This document shows, piece by piece, positions 1 to 46,599 of a DNA stretch of 64,000 nt. The translations under genes were made by a program, and so were the position numbers. A model generated the notes under the pieces. It did no database searches. It saw nothing but the letters and a program-made list of their open reading frames with translations, and had not been told where the DNA came from. Numbering within the stretch: the first letter of the stretch is position 1; the number at the start of each line of letters is the position of its first letter. Source of the stretch: Candidatus Poribacteria bacterium. Lineage in GTDB: Bacteria > Poribacteria > WGA-4E > PCPOR2b. The stretch spans positions 84,586 to 148,585 of the forward strand of contig OZ242335.1 in NCBI GenBank assembly GCA_965208425.1, read 5' to 3'.

Positions 1-1038
1 CAGCGTCGGTACTACGCAATCTATAGCAAATATATCAGCAAGTTTAGCCTGATAAATCACATCTCTAAGCTGAAACGATTGCCTCGGTTTACCCATTGGA
101 ATCAACTCCCCAGTCAAGCGATACAAGACGTAGCAGCACGCATCGACAAAGGCTACCGTGCCATGTTTGAAGCGCGTGCTTCAGGCAAGAGATGGGGCAG
201 ACCCCGTTTCAAGCCTCGTCGCAAGTATAAGTCATTCACATTGCTTCAGGCAGGTTGGAAACTCTTACCGGGCAATCGCATCCAGATAGGAAAACTTATC
301 TACTCCTATTTCAAGTCGCGCGATGTGTTTGGCAATCCGAAACGTTGTACGATTAAACGGGACGCCGTTGGAGATGTCTATATCTGTATCTTAACTGACT
401 ATGTAGAACCCGACCCCAATCGACTCACGACAGGTAAAATCGCGGGGTTTGATTTCGGTCTGAAACGGTATCTTACCGGTCATAACGGACACGATATAGA
501 ATCGCCACAGTTTTTTAAGCGCAGTATCAATGCTATCAAACGTGCAAACCGCGCGCATTCACGGAAAAAGAAAAAATCAAAGAACCGTGAACGCGCACGG
601 CTTGACTTGGCACGAAAACACCGCAAGATTGAACGCCAACGGGAGGATTTCCATTGGAAGTTGGCACACCAACTGACAGATGACTACGACGAGATACGGC
701 TTGAGGACTTAAATCTACAGGGCATGAAAATCCTCTGGGGAGGTAAGGTTAATGATTTAGGTTTTGGCGATTTCGTCAAAACGCTGATGTATATTGCCGA
801 CAAAAAAGGGGTCAAAATCGTGTTCATAGACAAGTGGTATCCAACGAGTAAAACTTGTTCGGTCTGCGGTGCGGTCAATGAAGTGTTGAATCTGCGGGAT
901 AGAACTTGGCAGTGTAATGATTGTCGCACGGTGCATGACCGAGACCGCAACGCTGCAACTAATATTTTTCGGGTTGGGGCGTCAACCCATGAAGGAGAGG
1001 ACGTAAGCCCCGATTCATCGGGCAATCCTTGTGGATAG
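1..1038 (+). CDS. tnpB: TnpB RNA-guided endonuclease (IS200/IS605 OrfB), 5' end outside the window
   Basis: Frame 1 is open from base 1 (QRRYYAIY...). Motifs: RuvC-I GFDFGLK, RuvC-II IRLEDLN, CSVC/CNDC zinc finger, RuvC-III DRDRNAATNI. Confidence 0.93.
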   Translation, partial: QRRYYAIYSKYISKFSLINHISKLKRLPRFTHWNQLPSQAIQDVAARIDKGYRAMFEARASGKRWGRPRFKPRRKYKSFTLLQAGWKLLPGNRIQIGKLIYSYFKSRDVFGNPKRCTIKRDAVGDVYICILTDYVEPDPNRLTTGKIAGFDFGLKRYLTGHNGHDIESPQFFKRSINAIKRANRAHSRKKKKSKNRERARLDLARKHRKIERQREDFHWKLAHQLTDDYDEIRLEDLNLQGMKILWGGKVNDLGFGDFVKTLMYIADKKGVKIVFIDKWYPTSKTCSVCGAVNEVLNLRDRTWQCNDCRTVHDRDRNAATNIFRVGASTHEGEDVSPDSSGNPCG

Positions 1039-1137
1039 CACAATTCCACTCCTATTGGCAAGGGACGCGCTCCGATTCTCGGAGTCCCGATAAATCGGGA
1101 TAAGAATCCCAAGCCTTTAGGTTTGGGAGTACGTCAA
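965..1137 (+). ncRNA. Putative omegaRNA scaffold and IS200/IS605 right end
   Basis: Overlaps the tnpB 3' end. Ends in GAAT, hairpin CCCAAGCCTTTAGGTTTGGG, then TCAA (1134-1137), the canonical right-end layout. Confidence 0.75.
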
Positions 1138-7765: not shown

Positions 7766-8530
7766 CTACAACTCTCCTCGCAGCAACAGGCGATCCGTCA
7801 TTGGCTCACCCTTACCGTTAAACGTGCCGGTTGGCATATAATGAATAACCATTGCTCGCCGCCTGCGCTGTGATCGATTCGGATTGGTCTGGTGCAGCAT
7901 CAGACAGTGATGCACCATCGCATACCCTGCTTTGAGCGGTACAGGTGCCGCACGATTTTCATCCACGTCTGCCTGCAGCAATGCCGGAAGTTTCCCCTTC
8001 TCTGATACGGCGCGGTCGTGATCTGGAGCGTTTTCCAAATGGCTGCCGGGGATAACGTTCATGCACCCATTCTCTTCATCGGCGTCGTCGAGTGCCATCC
8101 AGATACTCACAAGGTCCGACGGCGTACAACGCCAGTATCCGTTGTCCTGATGCCATGGTACTTCGCCGCCGTGCCGGGCAGGTTTATAGAGGGCTTGATC
8201 GTGGAACAATTGGATATTAGGTCCAATCAAGCTCTCAGCGATGTCCAACAACGGTTCATGATAGAGCAGTTGACGGTACACCTCATCGTAGTGCCACATC
8301 TCCATAATTTGCAGCATCTCCTCTGAACGGTCTGCGGTCTCGTCCTGTTCCGTTTCACCGACGACAGCAAGATTGCGCAGTCCTTCATCACTTGTCCCAT
8401 GTTTTTTCGCGAACAGCGCGTCGTAACGCTTGCGCAGCAAATCGAGATGATCGTCTGCGATGAGGCGATGTGGAATTTTGAGATACCCTTTCTCTTGAAA
8501 CTGTTCAACCTGTTGTGGCGTGAGTTTCAT
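7766..8530 (-). CDS. Phytanoyl-CoA dioxygenase (PhyH) family protein
   Basis: Motifs WHQD, W.ALDD..EENGC..VIPGSH, H...PNRS...RR. Confidence 0.92.
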   Translation of the reverse strand: MKLTPQQVEQFQEKGYLKIPHRLIADDHLDLLRKRYDALFAKKHGTSDEGLRNLAVVGETEQDETADRSEEMLQIMEMWHYDEVYRQLLYHEPLLDIAESLIGPNIQLFHDQALYKPARHGGEVPWHQDNGYWRCTPSDLVSIWMALDDADEENGCMNVIPGSHLENAPDHDRAVSEKGKLPALLQADVDENRAAPVPLKAGYAMVHHCLMLHQTNPNRSQRRRRAMVIHYMPTGTFNGKGEPMTDRLLLRGEL

Positions 8531-8627
8531 GGAATTCTCCTTTGGTATTTCAATTTTGCTTTACTTGTACCTGCATTTGATGATATACTTCGCATACAAT
8601 AAAGTTTTGATTTTTGACGAGGTTGCT

Positions 8628-8816
8628 ATGAAAACACTAGATGACTACATCGAAGAATTGAAAACTGAAGATCTCATCGAAGCCGCGCATACAGCCAAAG
8701 TGCAAAGCCATACACTTTTAGAAGATCAAGGGATTTCTACGCTTGCCCTCATGATCTCCGAACTAATTGTGGATTTCATTGAAGAACCTGAGCGGTTGCA
8801 GAGTCGGTTAAAATGA
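8628..8816 (+). CDS. Putative antitoxin of a type II TA pair
   Basis: 62-aa acidic ORF with a GAGG RBS; it overlaps the PIN gene by ATGA. Confidence 0.55.
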   Translation: MKTLDDYIEELKTEDLIEAAHTAKVQSHTLLEDQGISTLALMISELIVDFIEEPERLQSRLK

Positions 8817-9265
8817 AAGTTTATCTGGATGTATCTGTGTTGATCGTGTACCTCTTTGGACAGACGAAAGAGTCGATTCGGTATGAAGCGGTATCGAATC
8901 TCTTTGACAAGTTTCAAGCGTCTCAATTAGACTGCTGCATTTCTTTGTATGCTTTTCAGGAACTTTACTCTTTTTGTAATGCGAATTACTCTGCTGCTGA
9001 TGTCTCTAGTGTCTTTCGTTTGAGTTTGCTGAAACTTCTTGGTTATCCACTTCAAATTATGCCATTACTAACAAGAAGCGATCGTCTCACCTATGAACGC
9101 CGCTTCGCTATCTCTGACGCTTCCGATAAACCACATGTCATATCTGCTTACCTTGCTAGGTGTAACGCGATAATTTCTTACGATAGTCATTTCCAAGAAG
9201 CGACAGATTTTATTACAGCTCTAACGCCGGAAGAGTTTCTGGCACATATAGAAACTTCAGTATAG
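8813..9265 (+). CDS. PIN-domain (VapC-like) toxin
   Basis: N-terminal VYLDVSVL; D..D..H..SA....AIISYDSHF. Confidence 0.82.
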   Translation: MKVYLDVSVLIVYLFGQTKESIRYEAVSNLFDKFQASQLDCCISLYAFQELYSFCNANYSAADVSSVFRLSLLKLLGYPLQIMPLLTRSDRLTYERRFAISDASDKPHVISAYLARCNAIISYDSHFQEATDFITALTPEEFLAHIETSV

Positions 9266-9280: not shown

Positions 9281-10315
9281 CTATAACGTAACCGGCTCCC
9301 CAATCTCCGCTGATCGTTTCACCGCTCGGCAAATTGCTACCGCTTTCATACCCGCTTCGCCACTTGCCCGCGGTTCGCTCCCTGTTTCAATGCACTCGAT
9401 AAAATGCTCAATCTCTGCACGGAAAGAATCAAAATCCGGGTAGTTCTCTTCGTGCAAGGTTTCTGGATCATTCCGGAAGGAATAGTGCAAGGTGTCCACT
9501 CGATCGAACCCGCCTGTTACTTCCGCGACACCATTTTCATTGGCGACGTAGAAATCCTCAAAACTGAACCCACCCATCGAAACCATGCCAGCGTTGACAA
9601 TCCCTATCGCGCCGCCCTTGAAGCGCAGGGTAAACATTGCACAGTCGATCTGCGGTTTCCGGTGGGGTGCAAAGTAGGTTCCACCTTCTGCATAAACCCG
9701 CTCGACATCTCCCATCAGAAAGCCGAGAATGTCCGCCGCGTGCACGGCATTTTCGAGGATAGGTCCACCACCATCGTCCTCTGCCCAGAACCAATCCTTG
9801 TTCGACATCCCCGGATGCGGATACCTGTGGACCATGTACTGAATCGGACCGAATTCGCCTTCCGTCAGTTCCTTCAAACGCAGGAGCGGTGGGATAAATC
9901 GTTTCTTATGCCCAATCTGTAAGACAATACCCGCGGACTTGCACACATCGATCATCTCTTGGCAGTCCGAAACCGTGCTTGCCATCGGCTTCTCGCAAAG
10001 TACGTGGATGCCACGCTCCGCTGCTGCGCGTGTTAAAGCTAGGTGAATCTTCGGCGGGGTACAAATGCTGATTGCCGTCAGATCCTCCGTATCTAGCATC
10101 TCCTCCGCGGAGGTATAACCCTGGACACCGTACTGTGACGCGAAATCGTTTGTAATTTGTGGGACGATGTCACATACGCTGACCAACTCGGCGTCAGGAT
10201 TACCCGCCCACCGATCAACATGGGCGCGACCAACGCCTGCTAATCCAATCACTGCAACTTTGACTGCTCCCAATGTTGAAACATTGGGATTCTTAATAGA
10301 CTGATTGGTAGACAT
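9281..10315 (-). CDS. Gfo/Idh/MocA oxidoreductase whose first 18 codons come from the IS right end
   Basis: Motifs KVAVIGLAGVG, HVLCEKPMA, GGGPILENAVH. ATG at 10315 with a GGAG RBS lies inside the tnpB element end. Confidence 0.88.
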   Translation of the reverse strand: MSTNQSIKNPNVSTLGAVKVAVIGLAGVGRAHVDRWAGNPDAELVSVCDIVPQITNDFASQYGVQGYTSAEEMLDTEDLTAISICTPPKIHLALTRAAAERGIHVLCEKPMASTVSDCQEMIDVCKSAGIVLQIGHKKRFIPPLLRLKELTEGEFGPIQYMVHRYPHPGMSNKDWFWAEDDGGGPILENAVHAADILGFLMGDVERVYAEGGTYFAPHRKPQIDCAMFTLRFKGGAIGIVNAGMVSMGGFSFEDFYVANENGVAEVTGGFDRVDTLHYSFRNDPETLHEENYPDFDSFRAEIEHFIECIETGSEPRASGEAGMKAVAICRAVKRSAEIGEPVTL

Positions 10316-10425
10316 TTTACATCTCCATGCTATTTTCTTGTTTCGACGAGATATGCCACGAAGTGCCGTGGGCTTACCATCTCTCCACCCCGATAAATCG
10401 GGATCTCCCGATAAATCGGGACGTT

Positions 10426-11526
10426 TTACGTCTCCGTGTGTCCCATGGCGACGGTTCTGAGGTTTATTGCAGCGTTTCGGTCTCTGTCTTGTGTATGACC
10501 ACACACACTGCAATGGTACGTCCTATCCGACAAGGACAAGTCGCTATTGACTGTGCCGCAAGTTGAGCAAGTCTTACTGGACGGGTAGAAAGTATCTGCT
10601 TCTACAATTTTAACCCCCATACGTTCTGCCTTGTATTTAAGCATAGATAAGAAACTTGACAATGATGCCTCCGATAATGCCTTTGCAAGTCTATGATTCT
10701 TGAGCATTCCAGCAACATTAAGTGACTCTATCCCGATACGGCTTGCACGATTGACAATAGTTGTTGTTGTCTTGTGTTGAGCGTCTTGTCGAATACAGGT
10801 GATACGGTAATGCAGTTTGGCAAGTTTCGCTTTCGTCTTGTGCCAATTCCGACTGCCTTTTTCCTGTCGGCTTAACTGACGTTGCAACCGTTTTAACTTA
10901 CGCTCATAACGTTTTAAGGCTTTGGGATTCTCGTAGTAGACACCTTCGGAAGTGACTGCAAGATGCTTGATACCTACGTCCACACCAACAGTAGGCAATC
11001 CACGAATCTCTGGAGAGGTATCGTCTATAACGGTGTCTACCAGTATAGAAGCAAACCAACGGTGACCATGCTTAGAGATAACCACCTTGCAGATAGTACC
11101 GAGGTAGCGAAGGGATTGGAACATGCGAACCCAACCAATTTTGGGTAGTTTTATACGATGTCCTTCGACAATAGTTGTGCCTCGACCTGCGTCTGCTTGG
11201 AAACTCTGACCCCGTGAACGCTTCTTGAACTTTGGAAAACGACTCTGACCGGACTTCCATCTCCGTATTGCGTCTTGAAAATTAAAGTAAATCGCATTAT
11301 GAGCAGCACGTTGATTAAGTGCTTTACACCACTCGTATTGCTCATGTTTGACCGAATTAAAACGTTTGTTTAACGCTATATGGCTATACCACTTACCTGC
11401 GTTGAGTCCACGCTTAAAATCAGCAAGCACGTGATTATAGGCAACACGAGCATAGCCACAATGTTGAGCGAATTGTGTCGCTTGGACGTTGTTTGGATCT
11501 AAAGCGATTTTGTGAGTTTTTAACAT
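10426..11526 (-). CDS. tnpB: TnpB RNA-guided endonuclease
   Basis: HTH_OrfB-like N-terminus, GVDVGIK, IGIESLN, CSTC/CSVC, DRDRNAAINL. Confidence 0.95.
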   Translation of the reverse strand: MLKTHKIALDPNNVQATQFAQHCGYARVAYNHVLADFKRGLNAGKWYSHIALNKRFNSVKHEQYEWCKALNQRAAHNAIYFNFQDAIRRWKSGQSRFPKFKKRSRGQSFQADAGRGTTIVEGHRIKLPKIGWVRMFQSLRYLGTICKVVISKHGHRWFASILVDTVIDDTSPEIRGLPTVGVDVGIKHLAVTSEGVYYENPKALKRYERKLKRLQRQLSRQEKGSRNWHKTKAKLAKLHYRITCIRQDAQHKTTTTIVNRASRIGIESLNVAGMLKNHRLAKALSEASLSSFLSMLKYKAERMGVKIVEADTFYPSSKTCSTCGTVNSDLSLSDRTYHCSVCGHTQDRDRNAAINLRTVAMGHTET

Positions 11527-11541
11527 TGGAATTGTCTTTCT

Positions 11542-11616
11542 GTCTTTCGAGACCTATAGTAGTAGGTGTGGGAGACCCTAACGTGCGTTAGGGCTACTAT
11601 TTTCCCACCGAAAGAC
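11542..11616 (-). ncRNA. Pseudoknotted IS605 leader RNA motif, copy 2
   Basis: Stems GTCTTTCG/CGAAAGAC, GTGGGA/TCCCAC, CCCTAAC/GTTAGGG, ACCT/AGGT; pseudoknot ATAGTAG/CTACTAT. Confidence 0.65.
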
Positions 11617-11892
11617 AAACCAAGTAACCATATTTTGCCAACAATATCAAGTTTTTTAACGAAAGCACGATACGACAACGTTTGACCCAACGCTAAGTCC
11701 CGTTTCACGGGATCCCGATGTATCGGGATTGGAAACAGCACCTACCAATTTGGAGTGTCTCATTAATTCTAAAATCTACTATAAATGAAGCCGTGAACGA
11801 ATTGTCCTCACGTTTCACACATCACGTTTCACGCATTATACCCCGTAGTTTAGCAGAGAGGGATTGCAGAGTCAAGATAAACAAAAAGATAA

Positions 11893-42043: not shown

Positions 42044-42247
42044 TATAGTGAATTCTAAAAATAAAGGGACACTTTCGCCTCCCGGTAGGTGCGGTCCGAT
42101 AAATCGTGACCAGGGCTTCTAACCGCATCGCATAGATGCCGTGGTGGGTTGAAACGGCTTGTCCCGATTCTCGGGATCTCGATAAATCGGGATTGGAAAC
42201 AGTGCCTACCAATTTAGAGTGTTCCATTAATTCTAAGATCTACTATA
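42044..42247. repeat. MITE family B (inverted)
   Basis: TATAGTGAATTC...ATTAATTCTAAGATCTACTATA. Confidence 0.65.
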
Positions 42248-42357
42248 AATCAATAGGAGGTTTTACATGACATCTTTCAATTTACTCAAGCCAAAGTCTA
42301 GGCTTCGGTCTAATGATTTTCCGTTACAAATAACGGTAAAACTGATATAATTGTTTT

Positions 42358-42430
42358 GTCTTTCGGTGGGAGAATGGCGTACCGTCGCTTGGCGGTGTCT
42401 CCTACACCTACGCCAAGGGAATCGAAAGAC
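42358..42430 (+). ncRNA. Pseudoknotted IS605 leader RNA motif, copy 3
   Basis: Stems GTCTTTCG/CGAAAGAC, GTGGGAGA/TCTCCTAC, ACCGTC/GGCGGT, CCT/AGG; pseudoknot TGGCGT/ACGCCA. Confidence 0.65.
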
Positions 42431-42445
42431 GGAAAGACAATTCCA

Positions 42446-43546
42446 ATGTTAAAAACTCACAAAATCGCTTTAGATCCAAATAACGTTCAAGCGACGCAGT
42501 TCGCTCAACATTGCGGTTATGCTCGTGTTGCATATAACACTGCCTTAACCGATTTCAAAGAAGGATTGGATACAGGTGATTGGCGTTGTCATATAGTGCT
42601 CTGTCGTCGTTTGAATGCAATCAAAGCAGAAGCCTTTCCTTGGTCAACGTCACATTCGCAAAACGCCTCCAAGAATGCGATTTATACCAATCTCAAGGAT
42701 GCTATAGGACGTTGGAAGTCAGGACAGAATCGGTTTCCCAAGTTCAAGAAGCGTTCACACGGTCAGAGTTATCAAGCGGATAGCGGTCGAGGCACAATCC
42801 CTGTCGTAGGCAAGCGGATTAAACTTCCCAAAATCGGTTGGGTTCGCTTATGTCAATCCCTACGCTTCCTTGGTACTATCTGCAAAGTCGTTATCTCTAA
42901 GACAGCTAACCGTTGGTTCGCTTCTATCACTGTTGATACTTTTATTGACAATCCCATATCTGATAATCGTGGACTTCCTACTGTTGGTGTGGACGTAGGT
43001 ATCAAGCACTTGGCGGTCACGTCCGAAGGGGTGTACTACGAGAATCCGAAAGTCTTAAAACGTTATGAGCGCAAGTTAAAACGGTTACAACGCCGGTTAA
43101 GCCGCCGGGAAAAAGGGAGTCGGAATTGGCATAAGACGAGAGCGAAACTTGCCAAGCTGCATTACCGTATCACCTGTATCCGACAAGACGCTCAACACAA
43201 GGCAACAACAGCTATTGTCAACGGTGCAAGTCGTATCGGAATAGAGTCTCTGAACGTTACTGGAGTGCTCAAGAATCATAGACTTGCCAAAGCATTATCA
43301 GATGCCTCACTGTCAACGTTTCTGTCTATGCTCAAATACAAGGCAGAACGGATAGGCGTAAAGATTGTAGAAGCAGACACCTTCTACCCAAGCAGTAAGA
43401 CTTGTTCCGCTTGCGGTACGGTCGATAGCGACTTGTTCTTGTCGGATAGGACCTACCATTGCAGTGTGTGTGGTCATACACAAGACAGAGACCTTAACGC
43501 TGCAATAAACCTCAGAACCGTCGCCGTGGGACACACGGAGACGTAA
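42446..43546 (+). CDS. tnpB: TnpB RNA-guided endonuclease, close paralog of 10426-11526
   Basis: GVDVGIK, IGIESLN, CSAC/CSVC, DRDLNAAINL. Confidence 0.95.
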   Translation: MLKTHKIALDPNNVQATQFAQHCGYARVAYNTALTDFKEGLDTGDWRCHIVLCRRLNAIKAEAFPWSTSHSQNASKNAIYTNLKDAIGRWKSGQNRFPKFKKRSHGQSYQADSGRGTIPVVGKRIKLPKIGWVRLCQSLRFLGTICKVVISKTANRWFASITVDTFIDNPISDNRGLPTVGVDVGIKHLAVTSEGVYYENPKVLKRYERKLKRLQRRLSRREKGSRNWHKTRAKLAKLHYRITCIRQDAQHKATTAIVNGASRIGIESLNVTGVLKNHRLAKALSDASLSTFLSMLKYKAERIGVKIVEADTFYPSSKTCSACGTVDSDLFLSDRTYHCSVCGHTQDRDLNAAINLRTVAVGHTET

Positions 43547-43656
43547 AACGTCCCGATTTATCGGGAGATCCCGATTTATCGGGGTGGAGAGATGGTAAGC
43601 CCACGGTACTTCGTGGCACGTCTCGTCGAAACAGGAAAATAGCATGGAGATGTAAA

Positions 43657-44265
43657 ATGTCTACCAATCAGTCTATTAAGAATCCCAAGTCTTTAGGCTT
43701 GGGAGCAGTCAATGATTTACAACAGATTGCTAAGGCAGCGCAAGAGATTATCCAGATCTGTGAGCAAAAACGGACTAACAAAGCAGACAAGGAAAAGCTG
43801 CTTAAGCTGCAGGGGGCAATCCTCACACATATCGAAGAGCTTACCGAATGCGAAGCTTGCGGGTCAATCACAGATCTAGTTGTGACGATGACGATCGAAC
43901 CGGTGACGGCAAAGCTATGCAAAGATTGTGGGATAAGCGCGATCGAAGCCGGAAAAATTAAAAAAGCTACGACGCGAAAGCGATCCCCCCGAACTGCACA
44001 GAAAAATGTACCAGTATCGAAGAAAAAATCATCGCCACGACGAGCATCACCCAAGAATGCCGACGAACTGTATGCCGAGGTAGAGAAGGAAACAAGGCTC
44101 AAGAAAACGGATGTCAAACGCCTGCACAAAATTATCCAAGAGATCGCGAGTCCGATGAACCTTGAGAACACAGTCTTATATGTGAAGCATGAGGCTGAAC
44201 TTGCGAAATTGAGGATAGAGCAAGATGCTTTGAAAACGGCGGTCACGTTATTAATGGCGGCGTGA
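43657..44265 (+). CDS. Hypothetical zinc-finger, K/R-rich protein; N-terminus supplied by the IS right end
   Basis: CEAC...CKDC and a basic SPR/SPK linker. The original AGGAGG-ATG start is stranded at 42255-42269. Confidence 0.75.
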   Translation: MSTNQSIKNPKSLGLGAVNDLQQIAKAAQEIIQICEQKRTNKADKEKLLKLQGAILTHIEELTECEACGSITDLVVTMTIEPVTAKLCKDCGISAIEAGKIKKATTRKRSPRTAQKNVPVSKKKSSPRRASPKNADELYAEVEKETRLKKTDVKRLHKIIQEIASPMNLENTVLYVKHEAELAKLRIEQDALKTAVTLLMAA

Positions 44266-46204: not shown

Positions 46205-46599
46205 TTTTGTCCCGATTCTCGGGATCCCGACCTGTCGGGGCTTGATGTTCTTAGCAAAAGTATGGTATAATTTTAATACGTCCAAAAGCGGGAGAGTCTC
46301 ACCCCTACGCCTTGTAGGGTCTCCCGTTCCTTCTGGTGAAACAGAGGAATTGGACGCGTGGCTACCCAAGCCACATAAGGACGAAAACCAAGTCCAACAA
46401 TTATACCGTCGTGGCGGGACACGCCAAGACGTTAAAACGCTTGTGGAGGGACAGTAAGACCTCCGATGTATTGGAGGCAAGTTTCGTCGAAGCAAGTATA
46501 CGGCAGGGGTGCCCTTATCTGGACAGGCCCGTAAGTCCGTTAAAAACTCTCAAAGGAGACTCATAAGAATCCCAATGTTTCAACTTTGGGAGCGGTCAA
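46157..46599 (+). mobile_element. Non-autonomous IS200/IS605 derivative (leader RNA plus omegaRNA-like region, no tnpB)
   Basis: TTGAA|...CAAT plus hairpin CCCAATGCTTTAGCGTTGGG; right end AAGAATCCCAATG...TTGGGAGCGGTCAA. 46405-46500 resembles the tnpB 3' omegaRNA at 43518-43640. Confidence 0.8.
46279..46356 (+). ncRNA. Pseudoknotted IS605 leader RNA motif, copy 4
   Basis: Stems CGTCCAA/TTGGACG, GCGGGAGA/TCTCCCGT, CCTAC/GTAGG; pseudoknot GTCTCACC/GGTGAAAC. Confidence 0.6.

Follow-up and report, generated by a model that had tools for sequence, protein, structure and literature searches.

A TnpB transposon whose right end probably provides a replacement start codon for an oxidoreductase gene in Poribacteria

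The locus

The window examined here is a stretch of 64,000 nucleotides from a Candidatus Poribacteria genome (assembly GCA_965208425.1, contig OZ242335.1, positions 84,586 to 148,585). On its minus strand an intact tnpB gene of 366 codons (10426-11526) lies upstream of an oxidoreductase gene of the Gfo/Idh/MocA family. Pfam finds OrfB_IS605 (E 2e-27), Cas12f1-like_TNB (E 1e-21) and HTH_OrfB_IS605 in the TnpB protein. Its best solved relative is ISDra2 TnpB (8bf8/8exa), with a full-length match over residues 6-361 at E 1e-55. The motifs GVDVG, GIESL and DRDRNAA, which carry the acidic D/E/D of RuvC, align with those of ISDra2 TnpB.

The native body of the oxidoreductase gene occupies 9281-10259 on the minus strand. 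It runs from the third base of what would once have been its second codon (AA/A, the slash marking the junction) to a stop codon at 9283-9281, and it is delimited by the ORF, by Pfam and by orthologs of 87-96% identity in 18 of 19 congeners. Next to it is the right end of the transposon, whose last base is A10260. Within this right end GGAG (10326-10323), which resembles a Shine-Dalgarno sequence, stands 7 nt 5' of an ATG (10315-10313). This ATG opens what we call the start module (10260-10315, minus strand), which is defined by an alignment of copies and by 84 identical nucleotides in a second species. Its 18 codons (the ATG and 17 more, down to 10262) read MSTNQSIKNPNVSTLGAV. They are followed by an AA in the place of the AA of a lost ATGAA. 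The frame continues as AAA GTT GCA GTG ATT GGA, which gives the KVAVIG(LAGVG) of the oxidoreductase. In most native orthologs AGGAG is found 6 nt 5' of the gene's own ATG.

The predicted protein has the features of its family, an N-terminal NAD(P)-binding Rossmann domain and a C-terminal alpha/beta domain. PF01408 (GFO_IDH_MocA, the NAD-binding Rossmann domain) matches residues 18-136 (E 4e-29), and profile position 1 falls on residue 18 of the fusion. PF22725 and PF02894 (GFO_IDH_MocA_C3 and GFO_IDH_MocA_C) match further on. The original prediction was that GGAG and ATG in the transposon are joined in frame to KVAVIGLAGVG. This is confirmed by the minus-strand reading, by the start of the Pfam domain and by the ORF listing, where a single open frame (9281-10513, minus strand) includes the right-end ATG. 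It was also claimed that two hairpin variants, NVSTLG and KSLGLG, are both free of stops. This is the case for the second copy in the window, which has tnpB at 42446-43543 on the plus strand, a right-end ATG at 43657 and the KSLGLG hairpin, and which is open into an ORF of 184 codons. In the first copy the subterminal hairpin (10269-10288, minus strand) is CCCAATGTT-TC-AACATTGGG, read as NPNVSTLG. Its stem is kept through compensatory changes in the hairpin variants, and beyond it lies AGCAGTCAA, in which TCAA is the cleavage site.

Judging by conserved structure and by analogy with ISDra2 TnpB, a presumed omega-RNA scaffold would extend from the 3' end of tnpB to the end of the element (10260-10440, minus strand). 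A REP-like hairpin doublet lies within it at 10388-10421 and is present in 5 of 16 copies. In a conserved stem the GGAG makes up the 5' half and codons 2-3 are its pairing partner (RNAalifold, 60 unique right ends). No terminator-like site was found between tnpB and the oxidoreductase gene on that strand.

The other end of the element is damaged. What is left of it (11527-11697, minus strand) is the 3' arm of the left-end hairpin (CTTAGCGTTGGG) and the tnpB leader; in an alignment of 16 left ends the window copy is without the outer 15 nt and the 5' arm of the hairpin. A REP-type repeat, called family B, replaces the left tip and the host ATGAA at about 11698-11790 (minus strand). It consists of GTAGG (11745-11741), the hairpins TCCCGATACATCGGGA and TCCCGTGAAACGGGA, and about 45 nt upstream. 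The overwriting of the left end by such a repeat, with loss of the original ATGAA, had been read correctly beforehand. A family-B unit also occurs inverted at about 42195-42250 of the window. The window copy is probably no longer excisable. Upstream of the element a promoter-like TTGACT-17-TAAACT (11847-11875, minus strand) is also found upstream of the ortholog in at least three congeners (L039, L043, L047), and this is probably the native promoter of the oxidoreductase gene. The element has a promoter-like motif of its own in the left end, TTGATA-17-CATAAT, which is weaker in the window copy.

The element family and its target

The source genome (G000) is one contig of 6.8 Mb with 81 TnpB matches. 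Sixteen places in it are 79-100% identical to the window copy. When these 16 copies are aligned, conservation at the 3' side stops at ..CCCAATGTTTCAACATTGGGAGCAGTCA[A/G], which places the family-wide right end in the window after ..GGGAGCAGTCAA. Left ends begin directly after TGAA, or after TGAC in three diverged copies of this genome. TGAA had been predicted as the target, and it does adjoin the left end of other copies. The accompanying claim of a guide CAAT was roughly right. It is the 5 nt before the hairpin foot that co-vary with the cleavage site, as ACAAT with TGAA or ACAAG with TGAC at the left end and AGAAT with TCAA or AGAAC with TCAG at the right end. This covariation backs the boundaries at both ends. 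Covariation of this kind between 5 nt and the cleavage site is the recognition logic of IS608-type elements.

Both ends carry imperfect subterminal hairpins (CCCAATGCTTTAGCGTTGGG at the left, CCCAATGTTTCAACATTGGG at the right) with compensatory variants, and there are no terminal inverted repeats. The last 125 nt hold conserved stems with covariation, the presumed omega-RNA; a scan of the whole window against Rfam at gathering thresholds gave 0 matches. No tnpA lies between the left and right ends. There are 8 Y1_Tnp matches in the genome, none of them beside a copy of this family, and we assume mobilisation in trans by analogy with other TnpB-only elements. By its TnpB, its hairpins and its mode of insertion the element belongs to the TnpB-only (IS1341-like) group of the IS200/IS605 family. 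It is not an IStron because there is no intron: the same Rfam scan found no group I intron ribozyme.

The same genome has a second IS605-type family, with a left end in ..AAAG and the target TTAC. IS608 itself targets TTAC and ISDra2 targets TTGAT. For the family studied here the base 5' of TGAA varies, and A, G, T and C are all seen. A leading-strand rule for the copies was also considered. With the extremes of cumulative GC skew at 1.32 and 4.24 Mb it holds for only 9 of 16 copies, and it was dropped since the origin is unclear.

The empty site

The locus was read in 20 genomes including the source genome. An ortholog of the mature part was found in 18 of 19 congeners, and at 18 of the 19 loci the junction codon directly follows an ATG. 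Thirteen of the 18 empty sites read ATG followed by AAAGTTGC, that is ATG/AAAGTTGCAGTGATTGGA; the other five have AGAGTC, AGAGTT (twice), CAAGTT and AAAATT. It had been predicted that ATG AA plus A GTT GCA would rebuild a typical MKVAVIG start, and these 13 loci agree with that exactly. Because of these empty sites we place the insertion between ATGAA and AGTTGC. The sites (ATG AA/A GTT) show no duplication of the target, and insertion is 3' of TGAA in type 1 elements or TGAC in type 2 elements. The right end, ..GTCAA, re-creates the phase of ATGAA.

Two outcomes had been named as fatal to the original prediction: that orthologs have a longer, unrelated N-terminus, and that the gene is decaying. 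No ortholog has such an N-terminus; their open frames are 327-345 aa, against 413 here. Nor is the gene decaying. It keeps 326 intact native codons, and its dN/dS is 0.029-0.067 against 15 orthologs of equal length.

A second species (G005) has the same right-end junction and the same REP junction. It has lost the left end as well as the 5' part and the 3' part of tnpB. It retains 281 nt of tnpB and the final 85 nt of the right end, the last 84 nt of which show 0 differences from the window copy. This amounts to a natural deletion experiment: the nuclease has been removed and the start module has stayed. It must be noted that the divergence between the two genomes is a mosaic. There are 0 changes in 85 nt of the right end, 3 in 281 nt of the tnpB piece, and 6 in the first 200 nt of the gene, every one at a third codon position. 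Divergence is about 1-3% around the element, against 11-15 per 100 nt in the gene core. Segments must therefore have been moved by recombination, and not all of the overall dS (0.40) accumulated after the insertion. Given this, the gene may have stood behind the element for a short time.

Census of the family

We call a copy fused when at least 100 codons are open in phase from its right end. In the source genome 13 of 16 copies run in phase from the right end into 162-628 open codons. The remaining 3 belong to a diverged subfamily without the ATG and have 57, 1 and 26 codons in phase. The rate by chance is 14.4%, since 11,203 of the 77,873 TGAA sites scored have at least 100 open codons in that phase. 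Two other IS605-type right-end families in this genome have 3 of 50 and 3 of 18 copies in that phase.

A query of 84 nt from the right end has matches in 16 of the 20 genomes of the genus. The census combined the copies of the source genome with 48 full-length matches from 12 other genomes and with 54 of the 79 loci of a TnpB-based scan, all 79 from Candidatus or uncultured Poribacteria. The 25 other loci were left out because their right ends did not match the pattern; they have other tails or a TnpB of at most 63% identity. Clustering on 200 nt of downstream flank reduced 119 copies to 70 sites. Among type 1 sites with an ATG at -56 that is open to the end, 32 of 48 are fused. Where a type 1 start has been lost the count is 1 of 3, and a single site with both types present is fused (1 of 1). 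Type 2 has a 2-nt insertion and no ATG, and 0 of its 18 sites are fused. The difference between the types is significant (Fisher 4e-7), as is the excess of type 1 over 14.4% (binomial 2e-16). Type 2 is an imperfectly matched control because it uses TGAC rather than TGAA; that target is known from 4 copies, and most type 2 left ends were unmatched by the search pattern.

Of the 16 type 1 sites that are not fused, 8 lie 3-28 nt 5' of a long co-oriented ORF with a ribosome site, compared with 1 of 18 type 2 sites. The left flank is visible at 22 fused sites, and it reads ATGAA at 15, GTGAA at 1, TTGAA at 3 and CTGAA at 3. The arrangement is a family-wide phenomenon and the window case is one of many.

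One further observation concerns the right ends themselves. Those of type 2 share with type 1 an in-phase TTG at -14 and an open frame, and none of them is fused; the ATG of the right end is the part that they do not have, and it appears to matter.

Genes with the predicted tag

The genes behind these right ends are diverse. Pfam was run on 20 fusions; the domain matches begin within residues 19-26 of the fusion and take in the profile from position 1-2 on. They include Formyl_trans_N, DHBP_synthase, CTP_transf_like (NadD-like), Flavoprotein (UbiX-like), NAD_binding_2, Response_reg and RimK_N, and also Sulfatase, GFO_IDH_MocA, DAO, CDP-OH_P_transf, PBP_dimer, COX3, NAD kinase and D12 methyltransferase. 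Among the fused genes are mnmG, fmt, ribB, a nadD-like gene and an ftsI-like gene, all of them intact. In model bacteria ftsI, nadD, ribB and fmt are essential. mnmG is fused in the source genome; in 17 congeners it begins GTG/AAT (15) or ATG/AAT or AAC (2), exactly at the junction. Between carriers of the same fusion, dN/dS is 0.035-0.21 in 8 comparable shared fused pairs. The pair m10/L053 was kept out of this reading, as an indel shifts its codon pairing, and the right end of L088 is cut by a contig end.

The tag is also present in public proteins. When residues 1-40 of the fusion were compared with public proteins in a word-indexed search, 53 proteins matched. Fourteen were read and 13 of them start with the same 18 residues. 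By their precomputed Pfam accessions these 13 fall into about 12 unrelated families, which we take to be aldo-keto reductase, GpsA, MiaA, DUF711, an OmpR-type regulator, GcvT, MnmG, RimK, two lipoprotein-like proteins and others.

How a gene would lose its start and regain one

We argue that the insertion likely took the start codon of the oxidoreductase gene, and that the right end supplies a replacement ribosome site and ATG in frame. A transposase acting in trans would insert the element 3' of TGAA. At this locus TGAA was the final part of ATGAA, which comprised the start codon and the first two bases of a Lys codon. Wherever TGAA belongs to NTGAA, a start codon followed by AA, the host start is cut off from its gene. 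The host ribosome site and ATG were displaced by about 1.5 kb, and here they were lost later, when the REP repeat replaced the left tip. A host ATG joined to the left end opens just 4-10 codons, for example ATG AAA ACA CTG GAA ACA ATC CCA ATG CTT TAG. The right end brings GGAG-N7-ATG, with the ATG 56 nt from the final base of the element, and then 18 open codons that close with GTC AA, all in phase. The expected product is MSTNQSIKNPNVSTLGAV joined to KVAVIG.., which is the native enzyme with its Met exchanged for an 18-residue tag. Transcription would most likely come from the native promoter, from the tnpB promoter by read-through, or from both.

We infer from these sequences that ribosomes initiate at the element's ATG, because the fused genes are intact and constrained, some of them are essential in model bacteria, no alternative start has a ribosome site, and right ends of the ATG-less type are never fused. 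The tagged enzyme is presumably functional and transcribed along the routes proposed. Metatranscriptome contig sets with small shares of words (0.05-0.12) were searched as well; they bear neither on expression at this locus nor on habitat. At 90% likeness the long pieces that fall on the gene come from relatives, and none bridges the junction of right end and gene. One contig of 2,536 nt covers 9282-10261 with 71 other letters and is then unlike the window, as expected of a relative with an empty site.

The RNA structure complicates this picture. The conserved stem that RNAalifold gives for this part of the presumed omega-RNA takes in both GGAG and AUG, and the local hairpin has -5.4 kcal/mol. 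They may be present for the sake of the RNA structure. Such a stem would hinder initiation, which would have to contend with folding, bound TnpB and perhaps processing of the guide RNA's 3' end. The start module may have evolved as an adaptation of the transposon, or it may be a fortunate side effect that selection has let stand. We tentatively entertain the idea of an evolved start-codon prosthesis, although we would not bet on it. A TnpB transposon would then colonise the first codons of genes, even essential ones, where it is co-transcribed and where its deletion kills the gene, which is a form of addiction; with the ribosome site and AUG placed in an omega-RNA stem, TnpB may also gate translation of the host gene.

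Other explanations

One can imagine that the open frame is a matter of chance and that the insertion simply knocked the gene out. Eighteen open codons are by themselves not rare. However, the gene is intact with a dN/dS of 0.03-0.07, the junction persists in a second species in which tnpB has decayed, and 32 of 48 sites are in phase where 14.4% are expected. Several of the fused genes are essential in model bacteria as well, and all are intact. We consider chance close to refuted. It is also quite improbable that the element's ATG is irrelevant and the gene is expressed from another start, either the in-phase TTG at -14 or a GTG at native codon 4. Almost every copy has the TTG in phase, base pairing involves part of the ATG and GGAG, and the fused copy m1 has ATA in place of ATG, yet a gene of 375 codons is open behind it. 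Against this, neither TTG nor GTG has a GGAG-type motif 5-10 nt upstream. Starting at the GTG would delete part of the first Rossmann strand, as the Pfam match begins at residue 18. Type 2 elements have the same in-phase TTG and an open frame, and none of their 18 sites is fused, against 32 of 48 sites with the ATG.

Two further scenarios accept that the right-end start works. In one of them the fused gene is regulated, and its translation would be controlled either by TnpB sitting on the omega-RNA scaffold or by processing of the 3' end of that RNA. GGAG and AUG do lie inside a conserved stem of the scaffold, the guide would equal the first codons of the gene, and tnpB is intact with its catalytic motifs present. 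The second species speaks against it, as its start module remains without tnpB and without most of the scaffold. This means that the gene does not need TnpB, and we regard a regulatory device as unlikely. The other scenario concerns why copies cluster at gene starts. The transposase may prefer ribosome-site or ATGAA contexts, or the single-stranded DNA at gene 5' ends, so that selection on retained insertions would not be the cause. Counting fused sites together with those 3-28 nt upstream of a co-oriented start, 40 of 48 type 1 sites are at gene starts. Of the TGAA sites, at least 12,909 fall in no long ORF, and those resembling a start number at most 1,785. Since the former far outnumber the latter, simple tolerance predicts mostly intergenic copies, and the opposite is seen. 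Two starts, those of a PBP gene and of a DAO-type oxidoreductase gene, even bear different subfamilies in different species. On the other hand the base before TGAA is not fixed, and the type 2 sister elements and the TTAC-targeting family are mostly distant from starts. About two repeat strikes in 70 sites are also what we estimate ourselves for some 1,000 permissive sites. Targeting as the cause is a serious possibility that we still think somewhat unlikely. The excess at start sites can be read in three ways: as a preference for inserting at 5' ends, as better retention at starts (where the element is co-transcribed and its deletion kills the gene), or as faster decay of intergenic copies.

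Significance and comparison with known systems

A transposon within a gene is normally lethal to that gene. The known escapes are self-splicing, as in IStrons and group II introns, and short in-frame repeats. Start-codon replacement would be a third escape route, taken across a whole element family and in housekeeping genes too. The element seems to have here a systematic means of occupying gene starts in these sponge bacteria while the gene survives. This is relevant to the question of how TnpB elements are maintained in many copies in symbiont genomes, and of how host genes come to depend on a mobile element. Annotation is affected too, as dozens of public proteins begin with the same 18 transposon-coded residues. 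The system lends itself directly to experiment: the module measures 85 nt, the TAM of its TnpB is probably TGAA, and sister species naturally provide both empty and filled alleles of the same genes.

The element resembles IS608, ISDra2 and the IS1341-type elements in its TnpB (366 aa, matching that of ISDra2 over the full length), its subterminal hairpins, its lack of inverted repeats and its insertion 3' of a 4-nt target without duplication. A right end in TCAA, the covariation of 5 nt with the cleavage site and a presumed guide RNA region at the 3' end are further likenesses. Unlike IS608 and ISDra2 it has the target TGAA and no tnpA, and in its right end GGAG-ATG is followed by codons that are open in the phase of the target. 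Its copies also sit on or just before gene starts, not between genes. Other insertion sequences, such as IS1, IS2, IS5, IS10 and ISEcp1, switch on neighbouring genes with outward promoters. There too the end of the element gives an expression signal to the next gene. That signal is for transcription alone and lies upstream of an intact start, whereas here it is the translation start and the first 18 codons.

IStrons are group I introns fused to an IS605-type element with TnpB (PMC4227781; 10.1101/2023.11.20.567912). They are alike in being TnpB transposons tolerated in genes through a device of their own that restores the gene product. Their repair is RNA splicing and works anywhere in a gene, while ours would be a replacement translation start that works in the first codons only, at the price of a tag of 18 residues. 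In-frame MITEs, the Rickettsia palindromic elements among them, lie in frame inside many unrelated protein genes and are read as an extra peptide (PMC10969869). Such elements are internal and are read through. This element is full-length and bears a gene, so read-through of it is impossible and the gene restarts in its end. Plague 2010 (PMC2942039) reports that intergenic IS are depleted between divergent genes, which the author puts down to how intrusive they are when upstream of a gene. In the literature searched, which included PMC7290912 and 10.1101/2023.03.14.532601, no IS200/IS605 element was found described as supplying a start codon. What is new here is a TGAA target that overlaps Met-Lys and Met-Asn starts, a start module placed in phase in the right end, and residence on start codons.

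Other copies of the element and shared start codons

The window holds a second copy of the tnpB element at 42267-44265 (+), with tnpB at 42446-43543. On the target side AGGAGG..ATGAC stands directly before the insertion. The right end again carries an ATG, here at 43657, and it is in phase with a 184-codon ORF downstream that has a weak zinc-ribbon match. The hairpins of the left and right ends have co-varied in this copy, and its insertion site is common to the congener G005. Another fused copy of the same genome, m1 (genome positions 1795808-1797046, -), has ATA in place of the right-end ATG. The gene behind it is still open over 375 codons and has a twin-arginine signal.

Two genes have a single start codon that is occupied by different element subfamilies in different species. 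One is a PBP/FtsI-like gene (locus L085 versus L062 and L090), and the other is a DAO-type oxidoreductase gene (L073 and L160 versus L157). This implies either that these start codons were hit independently or that one element replaced another.

Repeats, end pieces and the neighboring ORFs

A doublet of REP-like hairpins (CCCGATTTATCGGG x2) lies directly past the tnpB stop at 10388-10421 (-), in the presumed guide-RNA region, and 5 of the 16 copies in the genome have such a doublet inserted there. The family B repeat is linked to GTAG-REP hairpins and is present in the window in both orientations (11749-11786 and about 42195-42250). The 38-nt piece at 11749-11786 is found on very many contigs in 4 metatranscriptome sets, with a high summed depth. 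A solo right-end hairpin with its tail (..AATCCCAATGTTTCAACTTTGGGAGCGGTCAA, 34 nt) is found at 46564-46597 (+) with no tnpB nearby. Short right-end matches of this kind are numerous throughout the genus and could be either remnants or derivatives that carry no gene.

Convergent to the oxidoreductase gene are two ORFs at 8520-9265 (+), one small and one with a PIN domain (weak PF13470 match), which are probably a toxin-antitoxin pair. This segment is near-identical between G005 and the genome holding the window, whereas the oxidoreductase gene differs between them in its core.

Comparison with IS608

The window also encodes a TnpB of a different family (32% identity) at 40-1137 (+). Its right end (..GGGAGTACGTCAA) makes it a member of a 50-copy family whose copies lie mostly outside genes. 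The target of this family is TTAC and its left-end guide is AAAG, as in IS608.
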